Part shown: positions 3,686 through 14,442 of the stretch, piece by piece | How the letters are laid out: each line of letters opens with the position of its first letter | Numbering within the stretch: the stretch's first letter is position 1 | NCBI GenBank assembly: GCA_965261975.1 | Contig: CBDHEC010000006.1 | Span: 1 to 16,591, forward strand | Source of the DNA: Alphaproteobacteria bacterium | GTDB lineage: Bacteria > Pseudomonadota > Alphaproteobacteria > UBA6615 | Length of the DNA stretch: 16,591 nucleotides | Direction: 5' to 3' | Program-made: the position numbers and the translations under genes | The notes under the pieces: model-generated | Told to the model about the DNA's origin: nothing | Databases searched by the model: none | What the model saw: only the letters and a program-made list of their open reading frames with translations

Positions 3686-5008
3686 CTAGCTTGCTGGAGT
3701 AACGGAGGCGCGGCCCACAGATGTGTAGTGGAAACCGGCAGCGGCCATCTCTTCGGGACGGTAGATGTTCCGAAGGTCGACCATGATGGGCTGTTTCAAA
3801 AGTGATTCCATGCGCGCCAAATCAAGGCCGCGGAACTCATTCCACTCGGTCAGAATCGCGACCGCATCCGCGCCATCCATGGCGTCATAGGCATCCTCGC
3901 ACCAGACCGGGCCGTCCATCAGTTTGCGCGCCTCGTCCATGCCCACCGGGTCAAAGACGCGCACCGTCGCCCCCGCCTCGATCAACCGGGGCACGATGAC
4001 CAAGCTCGGCGATTCGCGCATGTCGTCAGTGTTCGGTTTAAAGGTCAGCCCGAGGACGGCAAGGGTCTTGCCCTGAACATCGCCGCCGCACGCGGCAATG
4101 ATCTTGCGGGCCATCGCCTCCTTGCGCTCGGCGTTCACGGCCACGACCTGCTCGACAATCGTGATGGGGGCCTCGGCATCCTGTGCGGAGCGCACCAGCG
4201 CCTCTGTATCCTTGGGGAAGCACGAGCCGCCATAGCCCGGGCCAGCATGCAGAAACTTGCCGCCGATCCGGCCATCGAGGCCGATTCCCTTGGCCAGTTC
4301 CTGCACATCCGCGCCGACTTTCTCACACAAATCAGCGAATTCATTGATGAAGGTGATCTTCGTCGCCAGGAAGGTGTTGGCGGCGTATTTGATCAATTCC
4401 GCCGTCTCCAGGCTCGTCTGGATGATCGGCGTGTCGCGGAGGAACAACGGGCGATACATGCTTGCCACGGTTTCGCGCGCGCGATCCGTATCGGCACCGA
4501 TCACCACCCGGTCGGGGCGCATGAAATCCTCGATCGCGGAACCCTCGCGCAGAAACTCCGGGTTCGACGCAATATCGATATCGGCATCCGGTGCTGCGGC
4601 ACGAATGCGTTTCAGCACTTCGCGGCCGGTGCCGACCGGTACCGTCGACTTGGTCACCACCACGGTGTAGCCATCGGCGTTCCGGGCGATATCTTCGGCT
4701 GCCTGGAACACATAGCTCAGGTCGGCATGACCATCGCCACGGCGCGATGGAGTCCCTACCGCAATAAACACCGCGTCGGCACCCGACACCGCCGACGCCA
4801 GATCGGTGGTAAAGCTCAGCCGGCCTCCCGACACGTTGCGTGCGACCAGATCATCGAGCCGGGGCTCGTAGATCGGCATCTCGCCCGCCTCGAGCATCTT
4901 GATCTTGTCCGCATCCAGATCGACACAGACCACATCCCAGCCAAACTCCGAAAAACAGGCGCCCGACACCAGGCCGACATACCCTGTCCCCACCATCGCT
5001 ATCTTCAT
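3686..5008 (-). CDS. ugd: UDP-glucose 6-dehydrogenase
   Basis: Rossmann GTGYVG, KSTVPVGT, NPEFLREG, catalytic GYGGSCFPKD and FKPNTDDMRES. Start overlaps the galU stop (ATGA). Confidence 0.96.
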   Translation of the reverse strand: MKIAMVGTGYVGLVSGACFSEFGWDVVCVDLDADKIKMLEAGEMPIYEPRLDDLVARNVSGGRLSFTTDLASAVSGADAVFIAVGTPSRRGDGHADLSYVFQAAEDIARNADGYTVVVTKSTVPVGTGREVLKRIRAAAPDADIDIASNPEFLREGSAIEDFMRPDRVVIGADTDRARETVASMYRPLFLRDTPIIQTSLETAELIKYAANTFLATKITFINEFADLCEKVGADVQELAKGIGLDGRIGGKFLHAGPGYGGSCFPKDTEALVRSAQDAEAPITIVEQVVAVNAERKEAMARKIIAACGGDVQGKTLAVLGLTFKPNTDDMRESPSLVIVPRLIEAGATVRVFDPVGMDEARKLMDGPVWCEDAYDAMDGADAVAILTEWNEFRGLDLARMESLLKQPIMVDLRNIYRPEEMAAAGFHYTSVGRASVTPAS

Positions 5009-5886
5009 TTGGACATCTCTCCCATGCGGGCCAGCATCTCGCGTGTGCCCGGGCCCAGATCATCGCGCGCGAGTGCGAATGCCATATTCGCCTCCAGGAA
5101 TCCGAGCTTGTCGCCGCAATCGAACCGGCGCCCCTCAAAGGCGAGACCGTGGAAGGGCTGTCGCCCGATCAGCTTGGCCATCGCATCGGTGAGCTGGATT
5201 TCGCCGCCCGCACCCGTCTCGCGACGTTCGAGCTCCGTGAAAACTTCCGGCGTCAGGATGTAGCGGCCAATGACGGCCAGGTTGGATGGCGCGCTGCCTT
5301 GTGCCGGTTTCTCGACCAATCCCGTCACCGGGCGGATACGGCCTTCGGCGCCGCCGGAATCGATGATCCCGTAGCGAGAGGTATGTTCGTCGGGCACTTC
5401 CATCGCCGCGATGACATTGCCACCCGCGGTATCGAAAACATCGACCATTTGGCGCAAACAAGGCGTCTCGGCCTGAATCAAATCGTCGGCCAGCAGCACG
5501 GCAAACGGCTCGTTTCCGACGAGGTGTCGCGCACACCAGACCGCATGACCGAGGCCAAGCGGTTCCTGCTGGCGGACATATGCGATGTTGCCCGGCTCGA
5601 GGAGCGCGCCGTGAATATCGTCGAGCTCGTCATTCTTGCCCTTGGCCCCCAACAGGGCCTCGAGTTCGATGCTGCGATCGAAATGATCCTCGATCGCGCT
5701 TTTGCCCCGACCGGTCACGAAGATGAATTGCTCGATACCCGCCGCTCGCGCTTCATCCACGGCATATTGAATCAGCGGCCGGTCGACGACCGGCAGCATC
5801 TCTTTGGGCATAGCCTTGGTTGCAGGTAAAAACCTGGTTCCCATGCCACCCACGGGGAATATCGCCTTGCGGACGCGATTGGTCAT
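5005..5886 (-). CDS. galU: UTP--glucose-1-phosphate uridylyltransferase
   Basis: GGMGTRFLPATKAMPKEMLP, RQQEPLGLGHAV, VEKP and GEIQLTDA motifs. Confidence 0.97.
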   Translation of the reverse strand: MTNRVRKAIFPVGGMGTRFLPATKAMPKEMLPVVDRPLIQYAVDEARAAGIEQFIFVTGRGKSAIEDHFDRSIELEALLGAKGKNDELDDIHGALLEPGNIAYVRQQEPLGLGHAVWCARHLVGNEPFAVLLADDLIQAETPCLRQMVDVFDTAGGNVIAAMEVPDEHTSRYGIIDSGGAEGRIRPVTGLVEKPAQGSAPSNLAVIGRYILTPEVFTELERRETGAGGEIQLTDAMAKLIGRQPFHGLAFEGRRFDCGDKLGFLEANMAFALARDDLGPGTREMLARMGEMSK

Positions 5887-5974
5887 GAAAAGGGCCGGAA
5901 ATCTGTTTACCGAGCGCCATCAAGCGCATGGGCGACTTTTGCCATAGCGCCGGGATACCCGCAAGCGTACATGG

Positions 5975-6715
5975 TTACCGCCCGAGCAGCGTATCCTTGG
6001 CCTGATTGACCTTCGCGGCCATCCAGTCGGAACCGCCCTGGTCGGGGTGCGCGCGCTTCATTTCGGTTCGATAGGCCGCCTCGATGTCGGATTCCGTGGC
6101 ATTTTCGTCCACGCCGAGTATTTCACGGGCCTCGGCCTCGCTCATGCCCGTCTGAGTCCAGGGGCTGGCACCACCGCCGGAACCGGTGTCCGAATCGCGT
6201 GCACCGGAAGCCGCTTCCCCCCCGGCGACGTCGCGCCAGTCAGGGTGATTTCGATCCATATAGCTCTCAAGCACGCTTCGGGACTGCTCATCCTCGACCG
6301 CACAAAGCCGCCAGAGTTCGACCAGTTCACCGAGTTTCAAAGCCGAGAGCTTCCGCCCCGAAAGCGGTCCTTCCAGGACCTCGCCGTCCATGTCGCCCGT
6401 ATCGTGATCGAGCGTCATGCGCAGAAACCGTGTTTCGACCTTGCTCGACTGTCCCGCCCGCGGTCCGCGCGCATTCCGGCGCATCGCATTGATCGCACCC
6501 AGGCGCATCAGGAACGGAAGGGCGGGGAACAGTAACGCCCAGATGAAGTTCCAACGTCCCGACAGGGCAATCGCGATCACGCCGGCAATGAGCAAGATTG
6601 CGCCCGTCCAGCGCATGGCGCGAAGAATTTGCGCTGGTTGCGCACTGACAAACCACCGCGCGACAAAATACAGACCCACCAGGACGAAGATTGCGAGTAC
6701 GAGTAGAGGCAACAT
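5975..6715 (-). CDS. Membrane-anchored J-domain (DnaJ-like) co-chaperone with C-terminal J domain
   Basis: Two to three N-terminal hydrophobic helices. C-terminus MSEAEAREILGV...AHPDQGGSDWMAAKVNQAKDTLL carries an intact HPD motif. Confidence 0.9.
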   Translation of the reverse strand: MLPLLVLAIFVLVGLYFVARWFVSAQPAQILRAMRWTGAILLIAGVIAIALSGRWNFIWALLFPALPFLMRLGAINAMRRNARGPRAGQSSKVETRFLRMTLDHDTGDMDGEVLEGPLSGRKLSALKLGELVELWRLCAVEDEQSRSVLESYMDRNHPDWRDVAGGEAASGARDSDTGSGGGASPWTQTGMSEAEAREILGVDENATESDIEAAYRTEMKRAHPDQGGSDWMAAKVNQAKDTLLGR

Positions 6716-6724
6716 CGATCGATC

Positions 6725-7447
6725 CTATTTCCCGCCGCCCATCTGGTCGGCAATCTGGAGCACCCGGCCGCCCTTGCGTTTCCCGAGATCTTCGAGCGCA
6801 CGGCGCCCTCCGGCAGAGAAGACCGCCACCGCGGCAAGCAGCTCCCGCAGCTGCTGAGCGCTGCCCGCGTCGAACCCGCAATACGCACCGCCCGAGAGCT
6901 TGGCGATCTGCTCGAACGCGCGACGCGAGACTGGCTCTCCGCCTTCGTGAAAGACAAAAACCGGTGTTCCCACCAGGCCAAGCTGGCCGGCGAAATGCCC
7001 CAGTTCGTCGATGTCTTCCTCCACCACGTCGCCGACAAACACGAGTGCATCGACCTTTTGCGCGTTGGTTTCCTTCAGCGCATGGCGCAGGAGTTTGCGG
7101 ATCTGGGTACGCCCAGCGAGACAGCGCACCTTGATCATGCGGCGCACCAGTTCTTCGGGCGATTCAAGCCAGCTGGTCACTTTCATCTCGCCAAAACCGC
7201 GGTAGAAGGCCAGCTGTACCTCCAACCCGCCGATGTTGTCGGTCGAGGCAAACATCTCGGATTGGATCTGGCACGCCATGTCCCAGGTAGGCTCGCGACT
7301 GGCTGTGGCATCGATCGCAAACAGCAGACGGCCACGACGGCCGGCCGGCTTGGTCGGCGGCGTGGCCGCGACCTTCTGCAAAAACGCATCGATGTCCGCA
7401 CGCGACGATGCGTCGGCGGGAAGTTTTCGGATCGCGTTCAGAACCAC
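6725..7447 (-). CDS. von Willebrand factor A (vWA) domain protein; start uncertain
   Basis: LLFAIDATASR (MIDAS-like DxTxS), GRTQI, ALVFVGD, PVFVF and IAKLSGGAY follow vWA strand/helix order. Confidence 0.8.
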   Translation of the reverse strand: MVLNAIRKLPADASSRADIDAFLQKVAATPPTKPAGRRGRLLFAIDATASREPTWDMACQIQSEMFASTDNIGGLEVQLAFYRGFGEMKVTSWLESPEELVRRMIKVRCLAGRTQIRKLLRHALKETNAQKVDALVFVGDVVEEDIDELGHFAGQLGLVGTPVFVFHEGGEPVSRRAFEQIAKLSGGAYCGFDAGSAQQLRELLAAVAVFSAGGRRALEDLGKRKGGRVLQIADQMGGGK

Positions 7448-7465
7448 TCACGAAGCCACCAACTC

Positions 7466-8350
7466 CTATTTCGTTGCCACAACATCTGGTGCCTCGACCA
7501 CCTCGGGCACCCCGATCGCTTGCAACAGGTTCCGAACCTCCTGCAACGCGGCCATGTGGGACATGGTCAATGTGACATCGGCCCCCTCCTCTCGAACGTC
7601 AAGGAGGGTAAGCCCTTTCAGGAACAATTCGCGGAAAATCACCCGTTCGCTGAAACCGTGTGCGAGCCGAAAACCGAGCCGCCGGGCGAGGCCTTCCAGG
7701 GCGGCATCCATGTTGCGCTTGTTCTTCGTGTCCAGCGAGGCCAGCCGGTTGCGCATCACGATCCAGTCGATCGTGCCGCCATCGCGCTGGGCGCGCACCT
7801 TCTTCTGTTCCCAGACCATCTCTGAATAGGAACTCAGCTGAACAACCTCGTTGGTTTCGTGATCGACCCGACCCAGGAGATCCAAATCGACGAAGCTGTC
7901 ATTCATGGGGGTGACCAGGATGTCGGCATAGGAGTGCGCGTTGCGCGAAAGCGGGTTGTCGCTGCCGGGGGTGTCCAGGACGATCACATCGCTGGTCGCG
8001 CTCAACTCGCGCAACGTTTCGGCGAGCCGCAGGCGGTCATTCTTCTTGGCCGCGTAGCTATCGGGTAGATCGCTGAGACCGATCGCCCTGTAGGTGGGGT
8101 GTGGGAGCTGCAACCCCATTTTTGCGGCGTAGACCCGGCGGTTGTCGAAATAGCGGGCAAGTGTGCCCTGCCGCGCATCCAGATCAACCGCGCCGACCGT
8201 GTAGCCTTCGCGAAGGAGGCCGACGATGATGTGCATCGCCGTCGTGGACTTGCCGGTTCCACCCTTTTCGTTGCCGAGCACGATCACGGTCGCATCCACA
8301 CCGGGCTGATTCCCGACCCGCGGCGGTGCGCTTGTTTCCTCCGTCGTCAT
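7466..8350 (-). CDS. mipZ: Division-plane positioning ATPase MipZ (ParA/MinD family)
   Basis: Deviant Walker A GNEKGGTGKST, DLDARQ, DTPGSD, TPMNDSFVDLDLL, DWIVMRNRL and ERVIFRELFLKGLTLLD are characteristic of MipZ. Confidence 0.93.
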   Translation of the reverse strand: MTTEETSAPPRVGNQPGVDATVIVLGNEKGGTGKSTTAMHIIVGLLREGYTVGAVDLDARQGTLARYFDNRRVYAAKMGLQLPHPTYRAIGLSDLPDSYAAKKNDRLRLAETLRELSATSDVIVLDTPGSDNPLSRNAHSYADILVTPMNDSFVDLDLLGRVDHETNEVVQLSSYSEMVWEQKKVRAQRDGGTIDWIVMRNRLASLDTKNKRNMDAALEGLARRLGFRLAHGFSERVIFRELFLKGLTLLDVREEGADVTLTMSHMAALQEVRNLLQAIGVPEVVEAPDVVATK

Positions 8351-10473
8351 ACCGCGCGCATCCAGACAGCCGTGTCATGAAACACCGCGCCACCATTCGG
8401 CCGGCCCGCGTCTGCGCTGACCAGTAAATTGATGCCGATCCCTTCGACAAAGGCGCGGTTTGGCCAAATGCTCTCCACGATGACGGTGCCGCGGCGCACG
8501 CCTTCGGTGGGGCGCACATGGACCAAGAGAGAGCCCTGTGGGTTGCCGATCCGCACGAGACCGCCGGCTTCGAGCCCAAGCTCCGTGCAGATGTCGGGGT
8601 GTATCTGGGCTTCCGGTCGCCCCTCACGGGCCTGGCTGGTCGCGGTCTCCGTGAAACTGGTGTTCAGATAGTTCCGCGACGGCGCGGTCACCAACCGGAA
8701 CGGATGGGCCTCGTCCCGGTTGTCGATACTTGAATCATGGTCCGGCAGACGTGGCATGTCGTGGTGATTGCCGCCGATCTTCGACCAGTCCGGCGCAAAG
8801 TGGAACTTGCCGTCGGCATGGCCGAACCCGTCGATGAAGTGAGCCTCATCGAAGGGCCGCGCCCGGTCGTCCCAATGCCCCTCCCAGATCGCTTGCGCAC
8901 TGTCATAGCCCGAGCGGCGCAGGGTCTCATCCATCAGCTCCCAGGCATCCAGATCAAACCCGGGATGGTCAGCACCCAGCCGCTTCGCCAGGCCGCACAG
9001 GACATCGTGATTCGATCGCGTTTCGCCCAACGGCTCGATGACGGCGCGCGTTACCTGCAGATGGGTGTGCCCGCCCGCAACATAGAAATCGTCATGCTCA
9101 AGGAAGGTCGTCGCCGGCAGAACGATATCCGCCATCTCCGCTGTCTCGGTCATGAACTGCTCATGCACACACACGAACAGATCATCACGCATGAAGCCGT
9201 CGCGCACCTTGCCCAGATCCGGCGCGACATTCATGGGGTTGGTGTTCTGGATGAAAAGCGCGGTCACCGGCGGGCCGTCGCCCAGATCGCGCGGGTCGCC
9301 GGTCAGGATCGGACCGATGCGTGACTGGTCGAGCAGCCGGACGTTCAGATCGAGGACATCGAGGCCCTTGATGAGCGTTTGGTCGATATCGTAGATGCCG
9401 CCCTGGGCATAGAGCGCGCCGCCACCGGGATGTTGCCAGGCACCCGTCACCGCCGGCAGACAGCTCGCGGAGAACATCTGGACCGCGCCGTTGCGCGACC
9501 GGGTGAACCCGAAACCGAGCCGCAGGTAGCTGCGCTTATTCGCACCGTAAAGCTTCGCGAACGCCTCGATCTCCTCGACGGGAATAGAGGTGATCCCGGC
9601 CGCCCATTCAGGCGTGCGCGACGCCAGATGGGCTTCGAGCTCGTCGGCCCCGGCGGTATATTTCGCCAGATATTCCCGGTCTGCCAAACCGTCGCGGAAC
9701 AGGACATGCATCACCGCACAGGCCAGCGCGCCGTCGGTACCCGGGTTGGGCATCAGGTGAATATCAGCCTGTTTCGCGGTCTCGGTCAGGTAAGGATCGA
9801 CGACCACGATCTTCGCACCACGGTTCTTGCGCGCGCGCGTGGCGTGGCTCATCACGTTGACCTGGGTACTGACCGGGTTCGCCCCCCAGATGACGATCAG
9901 GTCCGAATCCGCCATCTCACGCGCATCGACACCCCATTTGGCGCCAACCCCGGCCATCCAGCCCGCGTCTGACAACGCGTTACAGAATGTGGAGTGCTGG
10001 CGCGAATAGCCCATCGCGTGGCGCAGCCGCTCGATCCCGTCGCGCTGCACCAGCCCCATCGTCCCCGCATAGAAGAACGGCCAGACCGTTTCCGGTCCGT
10101 ATTCTTCGGCTGCACCGGTGAGCTCCGCGGCGACCGTATCGAGGGCCTCGTCCCAGGAAATCTCCTCGAAGGCCTCTCGTCCAACGCCTTTCTTGCCGAC
10201 CCGGCGGAGCGGCTTGGTGAGGCGGTCGGGGTGATGCACCCGTTCGGCATAGCGTGCGACCTTGGCGCAGATAACGCCCGCCGTATACGTGTTGGCACTC
10301 GCACCGCGCACCCGGCCGATCGTCTGCGGCGTCAGGCGTTCCACTTCCAGCGCACAGGTACTCGGGCAATCATGCGGACAGGCCGAATGAAACACCTGGG
10401 CCTCGGCGTCGGTCTCGCGACGTGATTCGGCGCCATCCAAAGGCTTGTTCGGTCGGGTTTGATCGAGCGGCAT
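8347..10473 (-). CDS. Molybdopterin (bis-MGD, DMSO-reductase superfamily) oxidoreductase with N-terminal 4Fe-4S site; substrate unknown
   Basis: CPHDCPSTC...ICAK Fe-S motif, HPDRLTKPLRR, ISWDEALD, WGANP, VVVDP, PGTDGALA, FMTETAEMADIVLPA and a C-terminal molybdopterin dinucleotide-binding domain (IHP...VRIGNPQGS). ATG 10473 has GGAGA 8 nt upstream. Confidence 0.92.
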   Translation of the reverse strand: MPLDQTRPNKPLDGAESRRETDAEAQVFHSACPHDCPSTCALEVERLTPQTIGRVRGASANTYTAGVICAKVARYAERVHHPDRLTKPLRRVGKKGVGREAFEEISWDEALDTVAAELTGAAEEYGPETVWPFFYAGTMGLVQRDGIERLRHAMGYSRQHSTFCNALSDAGWMAGVGAKWGVDAREMADSDLIVIWGANPVSTQVNVMSHATRARKNRGAKIVVVDPYLTETAKQADIHLMPNPGTDGALACAVMHVLFRDGLADREYLAKYTAGADELEAHLASRTPEWAAGITSIPVEEIEAFAKLYGANKRSYLRLGFGFTRSRNGAVQMFSASCLPAVTGAWQHPGGGALYAQGGIYDIDQTLIKGLDVLDLNVRLLDQSRIGPILTGDPRDLGDGPPVTALFIQNTNPMNVAPDLGKVRDGFMRDDLFVCVHEQFMTETAEMADIVLPATTFLEHDDFYVAGGHTHLQVTRAVIEPLGETRSNHDVLCGLAKRLGADHPGFDLDAWELMDETLRRSGYDSAQAIWEGHWDDRARPFDEAHFIDGFGHADGKFHFAPDWSKIGGNHHDMPRLPDHDSSIDNRDEAHPFRLVTAPSRNYLNTSFTETATSQAREGRPEAQIHPDICTELGLEAGGLVRIGNPQGSLLVHVRPTEGVRRGTVIVESIWPNRAFVEGIGINLLVSADAGRPNGGAVFHDTAVWMRAV

Positions 10474-10494
10474 CGCGTGTGTCTCCAGATACAC

Positions 10495-10545: not shown

Positions 10546-11547
10546 TCAAAATTCGATCTGACCGTCCGGCCGGAAAGCCCGGAATGCAAAAGCGAATGTC
10601 ACGTCATACGGCACATCATGCAGGCCGCCATCCGCACCCGGTTTCTGAACGACGATGTTTCCCACATCCCGGCCCGCCGGGATGTGAGGGCTGTCATGGA
10701 CCGAATTCTGCCCCGCGTGCCAGGTCAGGATCAGGCCGCCGGCCACAACCCGGCCCCTGTCTCGCACGAGCTCGACCGACCAGGCCCTGTTGCCGACGGC
10801 AACGACCCGGGTCAGCGGAGATATATCCGCGGGTAGATCCGACGGATAGCGCTCACGCACCATGTTTCGCGATTGGGTGTCCCAAAGCGAATCCATGTGG
10901 AAGTAGGGTGTCTCGCCATAGGGCTGGCGCATCACGTCGGCCGGGATCATCACCTTGCCTGCGGGTGCCCGGGCGCGAAAACGGGCCAGAGATTCCAGCC
11001 GCGCCGGCAACGCGCGCAGCAACCTGCCGGCGTGTTCCCCCACGATCGCCTCACCGGTGAATTGCTGCAACCAGCTTTCTGTCGCGCGGTCATACATCAC
11101 CATGTCGGCATGGCGGATGCGGCCGGTATTCCCGAACGCCACGACCTGTCCGTTAATCCGGCGGTCATACACGACACCGGAATTGCATAGCGGGCAGTAG
11201 CTGACGAGCACCGGCACGCCGCCGACCGTATCGTTGACGATCTCGTGCCATAGCAGCATGCGCAGGGGATATGCGCGCGCATCTTCGTCGATGATGATGG
11301 AGAGCACGGGCTCCAGCGGTCCCATCGCGCTCAGCGCAGATATCGGCTGAAAAATCGGATCGTCGATAGGCGAGATCGTATCGCGGTAATTACCGTCATC
11401 CTCGATTTCGGAGAGCGGCACCTGCGCCCGGTCGAAATCGGTCAGCGGAAACTCGCTCTTCCACAACGCCAAATCGGCCGTCGCCCCCGTCATTCCGGTC
11501 AGCAATCCAACCGCGAGGACAAACGCGCTAGCGGTGAAACGTGCCAT
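10546..11547 (-). CDS. DUF3179 family exported protein with CxxC, paralogue C
   Basis: ARAYPLRMLLWHEIVND, YCPLCNSG, MVMYDRATESWLQQFTGEAIVG. Signal peptide MARFTASAFVLAVGLLTGMTGATA if started at ATG 11547 (20-nt overlap with the upstream paralogue). Confidence 0.87.
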   Translation of the reverse strand: MARFTASAFVLAVGLLTGMTGATADLALWKSEFPLTDFDRAQVPLSEIEDDGNYRDTISPIDDPIFQPISALSAMGPLEPVLSIIIDEDARAYPLRMLLWHEIVNDTVGGVPVLVSYCPLCNSGVVYDRRINGQVVAFGNTGRIRHADMVMYDRATESWLQQFTGEAIVGEHAGRLLRALPARLESLARFRARAPAGKVMIPADVMRQPYGETPYFHMDSLWDTQSRNMVRERYPSDLPADISPLTRVVAVGNRAWSVELVRDRGRVVAGGLILTWHAGQNSVHDSPHIPAGRDVGNIVVQKPGADGGLHDVPYDVTFAFAFRAFRPDGQIEF

Positions 11548-12577
11548 CCGGATGGAACGCACGGAACGAAAAGGCGAACACCACGTCATAGGGTACGTCC
11601 TCGACTCCATCGGCAGTCTTTCTCTGAACCACAACATTTCCCACGTCGCGTCCGCGGAAGATCAGTCGGGTGTCGTGGATGGAGTTCTGACCAGATTCCC
11701 AGGACAGCACCAGATCGCCGTCCGTAATCGTCGACTTCTCACGCAGCGCCGCAAGGGTCCAGGCCTCATCCTCCACGACAACGACCCGGTCCATCGGATT
11801 CACACCGTCGGGTAGCGGATAAGGGAAATGCACTGCCTGCAGCGCGCGAGGAATACGCTGGGTGTCCATACCCACATAGGGAGACGCACCATAGGGCCGC
11901 GCGTCGGCATTTTCGGGCACCAGCACCTGGCCATGGGGCGCGCGTTCACGGAAGCGCGCCAGGGATTCAAGGCGCGCCGGGATCGGCGTCATGCGCTTGC
12001 CCGAGAGGTCGCCGATGATCGCCTCGCCGGTGAATTGCTGCCACCAGCTCTCGGTTTCCTTGTCATACATGACCATGTCGCGATGGCGCAGCCGGCCGGT
12101 GTTGCCGAATTCCAGCAACTGCGACCCGATCCGGCGATCAAATACAACGCCCGAATTGCACAGCGGGCAGTAACTAATCAGCACCGGTGTACCGCCGATC
12201 ACCTCGTTGACGATTTCGTGCCACAGCAGGATGCGCAGCGGATAGGCCCGAAAGTCGCCGTTGATGCCGACCGACAGCACCGGCTCCAACGGGCCCATAT
12301 CCTTGACCTCGGCCGCCGGCACATATTTCGGCTCCCGCACCGGCGGGATCGAATCGCGCGTGTTGCCGTCATCACTGATCTCGTCGATTTCGATGATCCG
12401 GGTCTCGAAATTGGTCGCCGGGAACTCCCGTTGCCATTTCGAAAGCCCTTGGGCAAACGCGCCGGGCAACACGCCCCATAGCGAGACGGTGGCAATCGCG
12501 AATACGACGAAGGCCAGCCCCAACCGGGACCGGCCTCCCCCATTTTCGAGATGTCTGCTCGGAGAGCTTTTCACCAC
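11528..12577 (-). CDS. DUF3179 family exported protein with CxxC, paralogue B
   Basis: RAYPLRILLWHEIVNE, YCPLCNSG, MVMYDKETESWWQQFTGEAIIG. Hydrophobic signal ends in PGAFA. The GTG start is uncertain. Confidence 0.88.
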   Translation of the reverse strand: MVKSSPSRHLENGGGRSRLGLAFVVFAIATVSLWGVLPGAFAQGLSKWQREFPATNFETRIIEIDEISDDGNTRDSIPPVREPKYVPAAEVKDMGPLEPVLSVGINGDFRAYPLRILLWHEIVNEVIGGTPVLISYCPLCNSGVVFDRRIGSQLLEFGNTGRLRHRDMVMYDKETESWWQQFTGEAIIGDLSGKRMTPIPARLESLARFRERAPHGQVLVPENADARPYGASPYVGMDTQRIPRALQAVHFPYPLPDGVNPMDRVVVVEDEAWTLAALREKSTITDGDLVLSWESGQNSIHDTRLIFRGRDVGNVVVQRKTADGVEDVPYDVVFAFSFRAFHPDGTFHR

Positions 12578-12607
12578 TCTGCTTCCGTTTTCCGCTCCGC
12601 GCCCAAC

Positions 12608-13609
12608 CTACTTGTTGATGGTGCTGTCGGGATTGAACGCATGGAACGAGAAGGCAAAGGTCACGTCGTGGACCTCGTCGACAAGCTTGTCGCCTTCCTT
12701 GCGCTGCACCGTCACATTGCCGATGTCGCGGCCCTGGGAAATGTTGCGGGCATCCATCGCCGAGTTCTGACCGGATTCCCAGGTGATGACCAGCTCGTCG
12801 GTCTCGACCCGTTTCTCCTTGGCGAGCAGATCCATCGACCAGGCCTGATCATCGACGGCGACCACATAATCGAGCGGGCGAATGCCCTCTGGGAAACTGC
12901 CGCGATACAGGAACGGACGCGAGGAGCTGTCATACCCGGCATAGGGGTTGAAACCCGGTCCGCCGCGCGGGCTCAGGAGAACTTCACCCTCGGGGAAGCG
13001 TTCCTTGAAGAGATCGAACGCCTCGACACGAACCGGCAACATGGTCAGCTGGGTGCCGGTCATCTCGCCGACGATCCCCTCGCCGACAAACTGCTGCCAC
13101 CAGCTGTTGGTCTCGTGGTCCCACATCACCAGATCCGAGAAACGAAGCTTGCCGGACACCCCGAAGGTCAGGATCTGGCCATCGACATTGCGGTCGAACA
13201 CCACCGCCGAGTTGCACAGCGGGCAGAAGGTAACCGCGATCGGCTTGCCACCGAGTTCGTCGTTGACGATTTCATGGGTCATCAGGATGCCCAGCGGATA
13301 GGCGCGGGCCTCACCATTGACCGAAACGGTGATTACGGGCTCGGTCCCCTCGTAGAGACGGTCCACTTCGGCGATGGAGCCAAAGCGTGGATTGTAGATC
13401 GGGGAAATGCCGTCCTTCGGCACACCGCCCGAGAAAATCTCGTCAAACGGCACACTCGATTTCGAGAATTCGGTCTGCGGCCATTCGAGTTTCCAGAATG
13501 CCGGGTTGGCCTGGCCGCTGGCGGACACCGCGAGAAACAAAAGACCGGCGGCAATGATAACGCCGACGCGGCCCCATTTTTGAGTGGTGAGGAGTGGCAT
13601 GACGAACAT
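12608..13609 (-). CDS. DUF3179 family exported protein with CxxC, paralogue A
   Basis: SGGVPKDGISPI, ARAYPLGILMTHEIVND, FCPLCNSA, FGVSGKL, WDHETNSWWQQ. Signal peptide ends in SGQA. Start is likely ATG 13609 or 13600, not 13735. Confidence 0.89.
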   Translation of the reverse strand: MFVMPLLTTQKWGRVGVIIAAGLLFLAVSASGQANPAFWKLEWPQTEFSKSSVPFDEIFSGGVPKDGISPIYNPRFGSIAEVDRLYEGTEPVITVSVNGEARAYPLGILMTHEIVNDELGGKPIAVTFCPLCNSAVVFDRNVDGQILTFGVSGKLRFSDLVMWDHETNSWWQQFVGEGIVGEMTGTQLTMLPVRVEAFDLFKERFPEGEVLLSPRGGPGFNPYAGYDSSSRPFLYRGSFPEGIRPLDYVVAVDDQAWSMDLLAKEKRVETDELVITWESGQNSAMDARNISQGRDIGNVTVQRKEGDKLVDEVHDVTFAFSFHAFNPDSTINK

Positions 13610-13654
13610 CCCGTCGCTTTCGTGTTCAGTTAAACTTCGCAGATCATGGCGAGG

Positions 13655-13685
13655 AAAAAAAACGGCGGCGTCTCCGCCGCCGTTT
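13655..13685 (-). terminator. Strong rho-independent terminator in the leader of the DUF3179 cluster
   Basis: Minus strand AAA-CGGCGGCG-GAGA-CGCCGCCG-TTTTTTTT: perfect 8-bp GC stem, GNRA tetraloop and U8 tail. Confidence 0.8.
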
Positions 13686-13750
13686 AGGTATCTCCAAGCG
13701 TGTTTCGATTGGAGAAGCACGATGATCATGAGCATTAGATGATGATCTGC
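13655..13750 (-). ncRNA. Candidate ~95-nt sRNA or attenuator leader RNA
   Basis: Lies between a candidate -10 (TATAAG 13761-13756) and the intrinsic terminator. Contains a second hairpin TCTCCAA-N11-TTGGAGA (13715-13691). No family recognised. Confidence 0.45.
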
Positions 13751-13755
13751 CGCTG

Positions 13756-13790
13756 CTTATAAAGTCACTCTGCGTCACGTATTTGTGACA
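13756..13790. promoter_or_regulatory. Operator-like GTCAC/GTGAC array with an adjacent minus-strand -10 box
   Basis: Plus strand GTCAC (13764-68), N5, GTCAC (13774-78), N6, GTGAC (13785-89): a 10-bp-period direct repeat plus an inverted pair. TATAAG follows on the minus strand. Confidence 0.45.
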
Positions 13791-13854
13791 GTTGCGCGGC
13801 ATGCAGGCTTTGTGTTTTGCGCCCAGATAGAAGACCGCAACAGGAGCCCAACCC

Positions 13855-14442
13855 GTGAGCCTATCGACCTTGCTGAAAGAGGTGCGTGCCTGCGACATCT
13901 GCGCGGCGTCTCTCCCCCATGGCACCCGCCCCGTACTCCAGGCGGGTGCGAAGGCACGCATCCTGATCGCCGGCCAGGCGCCCGGGCGCAAGGTCCATGA
14001 AAGCGGTGTCCTGTTCGACGACCCCAGCGGTGACCGCTTGCGCGACTGGCTGCAGGTCGACCGGGATGTCTTCTATGATTCTGACAAGCTGGCGATCCTG
14101 CCGATGGGCTTTTGTTATCCGGGCGCCGGCAAGTCGGGCGATCTGCCGCCGCGCCCGGAATGTGCGCCGCAATGGCGCCGCGCGCTGCTCGATCTCTTGC
14201 CCAACATCGAACTCACGCTGGTCGTCGGCCAGTACGCGCAAGCGCACTACTTGCCCGACAACCCGTACAAGAACCTCACCGAGACCGTGCGCGCCTGGCA
14301 GGACTTCTGGCCCTGCGCGCTGCCGCTGCCCCACCCCAGCCCGCGCAACAATATCTGGATGCGCAAGAACCCCTGGTTCGAGGATGATGTCCTGCCCGCG
14401 CTTCGCGACGCGGTGGACAGGATTCTATCCGGCGCCGGCTGA
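13855..14442 (+). CDS. Uracil-DNA glycosylase superfamily protein
   Basis: ILIAGQAPG (motif A region), LPLPHPSPRN (motif B) and Cys residues in CDIC, FCYPG and PEC. AGGAG lies upstream of the GTG start. Confidence 0.9.
   Translation: MSLSTLLKEVRACDICAASLPHGTRPVLQAGAKARILIAGQAPGRKVHESGVLFDDPSGDRLRDWLQVDRDVFYDSDKLAILPMGFCYPGAGKSGDLPPRPECAPQWRRALLDLLPNIELTLVVGQYAQAHYLPDNPYKNLTETVRAWQDFWPCALPLPHPSPRNNIWMRKNPWFEDDVLPALRDAVDRILSGAG

Follow-up and report, generated by a model that had tools for sequence, protein, structure and literature searches.

The minus strand of the window (the whole stretch of 16,591 nt analysed here) carries, directly upstream of three DUF3179 genes, an element that is best explained as a ~75-nt 5' leader of this three-gene operon, extending from 13729 to 13655, in which premature termination controls entry into the operon and gives rise to a short RNA. 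The probability of this reading is put at roughly 0.55. The leader element most likely acts as a brake on the genes for three secreted CxxC proteins, and it may also release a small RNA. The findings support a real, unannotated RNA element that lies outside the described RNA families. Its two hairpins are located, on the minus strand, in the 245-nt gap that separates DUF3179 gene 1 from a divergent UDG gene, and the features of the region are, in minus-strand order:

13775..13788, minus strand: CenR-type box TCAC-N6-GTGA (TCA-N8-TGA), the flanks extending it to GTCAC-N6-GTGAC
13765..13768, minus strand: GTGA, a third half-site or a -35-proximal element, lying one turn of the helix past the box
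13734..13739, minus strand: candidate -10 element TCTAAT, 4 nt before the ATG at 13729
13727..13729, minus strand: ATG (offset 59, counted from TCAC), the putative site of transcription initiation and putative remnant of a leaderless start codon
13709..13729, minus strand: 5' leader segment, identical in the window and in the related locus L009
13691..13715, minus strand: hairpin 2, in which UCUCCAA (13715-13709) pairs with UUGGAGA (13697-13691)
13655..13685, minus strand: intrinsic terminator, consisting of AAA, an all-G/C 8-bp stem, a GAGA loop and T8
13682-13675, minus strand: terminator 5' arm, CGGCGGCG
13674-13671, minus strand: terminator loop, GAGA
13670-13663, minus strand: terminator 3' arm, CGCCGCCG
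13662-13655, minus strand: terminator T8 tract
13610..13654, minus strand: spacer and ribosome-binding region of gene 1, the first ~27 nt variable and the last 18 nt identical in L009
12608..13609, minus strand: DUF3179 gene 1 (Pfam PF11376, 2.8e-74), the product having a CPLC motif and an N-terminus that resembles a signal peptide
11528..12577, minus strand: DUF3179 gene 2 (Pfam, 2.5e-73), 43% identical to gene 1 and separated from it by a 30-nt gap
10546..11637, minus strand: DUF3179 gene 3 (Pfam, 9.9e-65), 43% identical to gene 1

The terminator, which an earlier sequence-only reading of the window had described on the minus strand, is present with its GAGA loop and T8 tract. It combines a G+C-rich stem, a 4-nt loop and a U-tract that follows directly, and was ranked first of the 25 terminator-like sites found in the window by a terminator scan (11 pairs, 8 of them G-C). 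The predicted folding energy of the core is -17.5 kcal/mol, reaching -21.0 kcal/mol with the A/U extension, in which AAA at 13685-13683 possibly adds three A-U pairs to the stem. The stem-loop pattern occurs once in the window and in one of the 80 fetched loci (L009). The T-tract ends 45 nt from the ATG at 13609 and 54 nt from that at 13600, in agreement with the ~45 nt to the first DUF3179 start given earlier. Gene 1 starts at 13609 or, more likely, at 13600, and not at the in-frame ATG at 13735, since 330 or 333 aa is the length of most of its close homologues. The observation that no minus-strand gene lies ahead of the terminator also holds. The UDG-family gene (13855-14442, plus strand) is divergent, and the overlying minus-strand ORFs (13644-13991, 13775-13957 and 13861-14334) gave no Pfam family; hence, the terminator has no gene of its own to terminate. 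As judged by these features, the hairpin and T8 are supported as a true intrinsic terminator, directed into the DUF3179 genes.

Hairpin 2 likewise exists as previously drawn, at 13715-13691, with an additional inner C-G and G-C pair, a 5-nt loop and a predicted energy of -9.3 kcal/mol. The region 13765-13645 as a whole folds at -41.6 kcal/mol (z = -4.7), and none of 200 shuffled sequences was as stable. The leader RNA probably extends over ~75 nt, from ~13729 to ~13655 on the minus strand, and such a product is predicted to begin with 13 unpaired nt, followed by hairpin 2 and then by the hairpin of the terminator. The statement that the element belongs to no known family was borne out by a covariance-model scan of the whole window against Rfam 15, in which there were no matches at the gathering threshold. 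A permissive scan of 13400-14000 gave sub-threshold matches only (STnc50 at 24 bits versus 55, sroD at 21.4 versus 50), all of them to enterobacterial sRNAs and driven by the terminator. Given the lack of homology to any Rfam family, or to the UpsM RNA discussed below, the element is regarded as a new RNA family, though one of a familiar kind.

The position of the promoter was deduced by comparison with relatives, namely 80 loci obtained in one genome-collection scan for which an alignment of 30 close DUF3179 proteins served as the query. The exact core TCAC-N6-GTGA, a motif as published for CenR and located here at 13788-13775, was found in 25 of the 81 upstream 250-nt windows and at 9 sites in the other ~780 kb, a ~100-fold enrichment. 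Besides the window, the core is present within 250 nt upstream of DUF3179 in L001, L003, L009, L010, L013, L015, L017-L021 and L025, and also in L031, L033-L035, L040, L044-L046, L049, L062, L074 and L079. The exact box occurs in 23 relatives, and in 15 of them an in-frame ATG is found at a fixed offset from TCAC, which is 49-51 in six loci and 59-64 in nine (L003, L010, L015, L017, L018, L019, L021, L025, L031, L034, L035, L044, L046, L062 and L079 together). The third GTGA half-site occurs in the window, L009, L003, L004, L010 and L017, and is TTGA in others; in loci that have it, the ATG lies 10 nt further from TCAC (offset 59-64 versus 49-51). Measured from the middle of the proximal half-site pair, the ATG of the 15 loci is ~42 nt away. 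An SD-like tetramer precedes the gene in 2 of these 15 fixed-spacing loci versus 7 of 10 loci with longer leaders. The fixed box-to-ATG spacing and the scarcity of SD-like sequences are most simply explained if the DUF3179 mRNAs of this group are for the most part leaderless and activator-dependent.

Offset 59 in the window and in L009 falls on the ATG at 13729, which lies upstream of the terminator and is no longer the start of the gene. As the leaderless ATGs of relatives occupy the same offset, the transcription start is placed at ~13729, probably in preference to a site downstream of the TATAAG (13761-13756) that had been proposed as the -10 element. That hexamer is present, but it has no properly spaced -35, sits at the -35-proximal bases of relatives and is probably not the -10; the transcript length of ~95 nt derived from it is thus probably wrong as well, and ~75 nt is preferred. 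A/T-rich hexamers at the offset of the candidate -10 TCTAAT are also found in L003, L004, L017, L021 and L009. TCTAAT was missed by a sigma-70 consensus scan, which returned no site on either strand of the intergenic gap, and placement of the start is therefore comparative rather than direct.

Published work on the envelope regulator CenR, of the two-component system CenK-CenR, gives this box a context. In Sinorhizobium meliloti, AGTCAC-N6-GTGACT, centred at about -42 and overlapping the -35, is required for CenR-dependent activation of srlA, the product of which is a thioredoxin-like protein (PMC9561847, PMC11328730). The Rhodobacter sphaeroides CenR consensus is given as TGA-N8-TGA, with 28 of 31 sites just upstream of the -35 and a CenKR regulon in which exported proteins, among them DsbC, CcmF and CycH, predominate (PMC9275681). 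The promoters described there and the one considered here share the same box by the -35 and a site centre ~42 nt from the start, and the second half-site in the window begins TGACGCAG, as do several R. sphaeroides CenR sites; the window differs in its extra half-site, and the likeness is one of motif. CenR targets are mostly periplasmic or envelope proteins, including the thiol-redox proteins SrlA, DsbC and CcmF, and the genes here encode secreted CxxC proteins. Motif likeness would thus make the promoter CenR-dependent, and the occurrence of the box suggests that DUF3179 is a member of the CenKR envelope regulon in marine Alphaproteobacteria; the window itself contains no cenR gene. DUF3179 is not named in the accessible text or tables of the three CenR papers, which in the same portions make no mention of an RNA product of CenR-activated promoters (the term 'sRNA' is absent from PMC9275681).

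In the mechanism favoured here, transcription would start at an activator-type promoter with a CenR-like box, a promoter that would drive a leaderless DUF3179 mRNA in most relatives. In the present lineage, the old +1/ATG would now precede a small hairpin and a strong intrinsic terminator, with gene 1, equipped with its own ribosome-binding site, beginning 45-54 nt past the latter. Polymerase setting out from ~13729 would reach the terminator after ~45-50 nt, most transcripts would stop at the T-tract with release of a short two-hairpin RNA, and the operon would be expressed by read-through transcripts only. One box serves three DUF3179 genes, and neither a scan of the window nor the L009 alignment revealed conserved promoter-like hexamers in the 45-nt spacer between terminator and gene; on these grounds, expression of the operon most likely needs read-through. 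Because promoters of Alphaproteobacteria are degenerate and the scan found none anywhere in the intergenic region, the spacer may still contain a weak promoter that escaped recognition.

The spacer itself is 37/47 identical in aligned columns between the window and L009. An SD-like GGGA is located in the invariant 18 nt before the ATG at 13609 (13610-13627; 4983-5000 in L009). These 18 nt and the first 14 nt after the ATG are identical despite 42% neutral divergence, and identity around this ATG exceeds what a ribosome-binding site needs.

Whether termination is conditional is a separate matter. The sequence-only reading had pointed to two GGAGA copies, one spanning the terminator loop, and had proposed alternative, riboswitch-like folds. 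Both copies are present (13695-13691 and 13675-13671), but the folds are not borne out. When the 3' arm of the terminator is blocked, the most stable structure left reaches -15.4 kcal/mol versus -31.8 kcal/mol with the terminator, so that the best alternative is 16 kcal/mol worse. Pairing of the 5' segment with the terminator 5' arm (-6.8 kcal/mol) was equalled by 37% of shuffles, and 12% equalled a second pairing, drawn by RNAalifold, in which the 5' segment joins the start region of gene 1; both are no better than chance. The alternative in which UCUCC pairs with the GGAGA of the loop costs the terminator at most one pair, and the loop copy of GGAGA would be lost in the carrier protein P0017 described below. 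Conditional control is thus left unproven by the energy gap and by a key pairing at chance level. As the leader has no convincing antiterminator, any control would be exerted by a trans factor or by ribosomes loading at the 5'-terminal AUG, and the terminator may serve as constitutive damping.

The sequence-only reading had made its case depend on conservation in relatives, and such conservation is found. Locus L009, which encodes a protein 86% identical to that of the window and lies at a contig end, is the sole carrier among the 80 fetched loci. Between the two leaders, 9 of 75 columns differ, versus 35 of 83 fourfold-degenerate sites in gene 1 (42%; Fisher p = 3e-5). Five of the nine differences, including a 1-nt indel, are in the apex of hairpin 2, three are in the linker and one is the last U; leader positions 1-20 show none, and the lower six pairs of hairpin 2 are identical. 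At the neutral rate, the invariant run of 28 nt over the terminator has a chance probability of 2e-7 and the other run, of 22 nt, one of 6e-6. As judged by this comparison, the leader element is under selection. None of the 34 predicted pairs is compensatory in the two DNA sequences available, and the stems, being conserved in sequence rather than covarying, fit a structural role without proving it; a protein-binding or base-pairing role could also account for their conservation. Strict sequence conservation beyond structure may leave room for a role in trans of the terminated RNA.

A search of the window and the 80 loci with a covariance model of the two known copies, those of the window and L009, detected no further copy (best other E = 0.05-0.1). 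Likewise, when the 300 nt ahead of each of the 81 DUF3179 genes were scanned for terminators, a strong one between box and gene was found only in the window and L009, the few other matches being weak or within coding region. Two further carriers were recognised in database proteins, P0006 and P0017, the over-long N-termini of which translate the same hairpin DNA in two frames. P0006 reads the hairpin as NGGGDAAVF, which is the frame of the window, and P0017 reads HDHRASP in the 5' segment and RRRKRRRFF in the terminator, where, by the genetic code, the K would reflect a loop change with the stem retained. The four carriers in total (window, L009, P0006 and P0017) have proteins 79-100% identical to that of the window. 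Protein searches with the translated leader alone gave nothing in the frame of the window and only the query itself in that of P0017. Of the complete-genome relatives among the fetched loci, the closest is L001 (protein 77% identical); it carries the box, and its leader, of 58 nt, contains no terminator. In L009, the divergent neighbour is a DUF488 gene in place of UDG, and the element therefore goes with DUF3179 and not with the upstream gene.

The choice between a leader or attenuator and a stand-alone sRNA had been correctly posed by the earlier reading, and the leader is favoured, as the DUF3179 promoter of relatives lies upstream of the terminator here. As a trans-acting sRNA, which is judged unlikely though the best of the alternatives, the ~75-nt RNA would be the only product of the box promoter, with its invariant 5' 20 nt as the seed, and DUF3179 would be expressed from a separate promoter past the terminator. 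Such an RNA would have the usual shape, with a 5' single strand, a hairpin and a terminator with a U-tail, and the weak Rfam matches all being to enterobacterial sRNAs is in keeping with it. Moreover, the unpaired 5' segment and even the terminator loop are strictly conserved against 42% neutral divergence, a pattern more in keeping with base-pairing or protein binding than with structure by itself. However, the 45-54 nt from the T-tract to the start codons, where the separate promoter would have to lie, are poorly conserved over their first ~27 nt and free of promoter-like hexamers, and the promoter assigned to the sRNA is the very one that serves DUF3179 in relatives.

Attenuation coupled to translation is less probable again. 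Here, ribosomes would load on the 5'-terminal AUG at 13729 and trail the polymerase, tight coupling blocking the hairpin and poor coupling leading to termination. This AUG is exactly at the position of the leaderless start codon of relatives, the window and L009 agree in codons 1-8, and the frame is open through the terminator in the window, where it runs into gene 1, and in L009, where a stop follows 9 nt past the T-tract; P0006 retains the frame of the window through the hairpin. The open frame nevertheless carries little information, since none of the frames through the terminator sequence contains a stop codon. Past codon ~9, a 1-nt indel puts the window and L009 in different frames, so that there is no conserved leader peptide, and there are neither regulatory codons nor alternative hairpins. 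Translation-coupled attenuation on a leaderless RNA has, to our knowledge, not been described. A bolder combination, offered as a doubtful conjecture of about the same standing, would see in the element the first sRNA or attenuator of the essential CenK-CenR system, in which a terminator was inserted after a leaderless promoter, AUG-loaded ribosomes set the level of read-through, and the product acts in trans via its 5' 20 nt.

The remaining explanations are far weaker. A ligand-sensing riboswitch with a terminator as its expression platform would suit the 5' leader position and the high sequence conservation. It is very improbable, as no Rfam family reached the gathering threshold (the best match being the 24 bits versus 55 given above), only ~45 nt precede the terminator, the sole candidate loop holds five of the nine leader differences and the indel, and no antiterminator competes, the UCUCC alternative to the terminator loop being one that P0017 would have lost. 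An origin as a neutral relic of rearrangement, e.g. the start and terminator of a deleted upstream copy left behind when DUF3179 multiplied, is given equally little credence. It would account for the apparent ancestral start codon at which the leader opens, for the occurrence of three tandem copies only in the window among 81 loci and for the lack of a terminator in L001, but not for 28 and 22 consecutive invariant nucleotides at 42% neutral divergence; the element is common to four carriers, with proteins of relatives 79-86% identical, and none of the 80 loci has a comparable terminator behind its DUF3179 gene. Finally, an N-terminal extension of gene 1 from the ATG at 13735 or 13729, prompted by the open frame into gene 1 and by gene callers that extended P0006 and P0017 alike, can be set aside almost entirely, because the lengths of close homologues (mostly 330 or 333 aa) oppose it, the frame is broken in L009 and differs upstream of the hairpin in P0017, the signal-peptide-like N-terminus would be buried and the Pfam match begins at residue 107 of the extended form.

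The premature-termination leader preferred here has its closest working analogue in UpsM. R. sphaeroides UpsM arises at a Rho-independent terminator in the dcw 5' UTR, termination giving the sRNA and read-through the operon mRNA (PMC5089854), and CenR ChIP signal is reported upstream of mraZ in the same species (PMC9275681). The two systems share a 5'-UTR terminator ahead of an alphaproteobacterial operon, the alternative of a short RNA or a read-through mRNA, and a regulatory input that is not obvious. They differ in the length of the UTR (268 nt versus ~75 nt here) and in the downstream genes, and there is no sequence or Rfam match. The marks of an UpsM-like sRNA, a shared promoter and a terminator inside the 5' UTR, are found in the window at the level of sequence and comparison.

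Leader-peptide attenuators and terminator riboswitches likewise have a terminator between promoter and first gene, and a short ORF across the terminator. The leader described here differs from them in having no antiterminator hairpin, regulatory codons, conserved peptide or aptamer family, and of a conserved ORF with regulatory codons only the first 8 codons shared with L009 were found. Enterobacterial envelope-stress sRNAs under OmpR-family or sigma-E control are short, with a conserved single-stranded 5' end and a terminator hairpin. They resemble the present RNA in shape and in the apparent OmpR-family envelope regulator; there is no homology, and the RNA here is physically the leader of an operon.

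The CenR box and the leaderless mRNAs, newly found here, make up most of the value added to the RNA observation. If the proposal is true, an RNA layer is added to the CenKR envelope regulon, for which the accessible CenR literature reports no RNA output; DUF3179, an uncharacterised periplasmic CxxC family, becomes linked to envelope and redox homeostasis in marine Alphaproteobacteria; and a route is revealed by which a leaderless gene gains a terminated leader. The open frame across the leader is also of practical concern, as it misleads gene callers into false, over-long N-termini (P0006 and P0017). In the window, the frame from the ATG at 13735 is open (13610-13735, minus strand) across the terminator into gene 1.

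Several observations concern the DUF3179 genes and their surroundings. DUF3179 appears, in the literature portions available, only within lists of selenoprotein families, and no solved structures were found for it. The motif C129-P-L-C132 is invariant in 30 sequences. The real start of gene 3 is probably downstream of 11637, as the ORF overlaps gene 2. The three tandem paralogues (10546-13609, minus strand) are mutually 43% identical, and DUF3179 is single-copy within +/-5 kb in 80 of 80 fetched loci, the contig of L009 being cut after the first gene. Another DUF3179 protein, P0005, is encoded elsewhere on the L001 chromosome. Among 123 neighbours at 33 loci, no conserved regulator gene was found beside DUF3179.

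Directly downstream of DUF3179 is a gene for a molybdopterin oxidoreductase with an Fe4S4 domain in the window (8347-10494, minus strand) and in at least two other loci, L020 (2831-4900) and L062 (1139-3205), and a functional link between the two is possible; a promoter-like site at 10523-10495 (minus strand) precedes the oxidoreductase gene of the window. Further along, the genes at 5005-8350 (minus strand), which encode an unknown ~236-aa protein, a DnaJ-domain protein, MipZ and a nucleotidyl transferase, are syntenic with DUF3179 also in L003, L004, L017, L021, L034 and L049, and L034 has two adjacent MipZ genes. On the other side, a divergent FAD oxidoreductase (DAO) gene replaces UDG in many relatives. 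In L011 (~4945-5030) and L024 (~233-320), a long G+C-rich hairpin followed by TTTCGGTT is located immediately past a degenerate box and ahead of the DUF3179 start, and may represent an unrelated structured leader at the same position.
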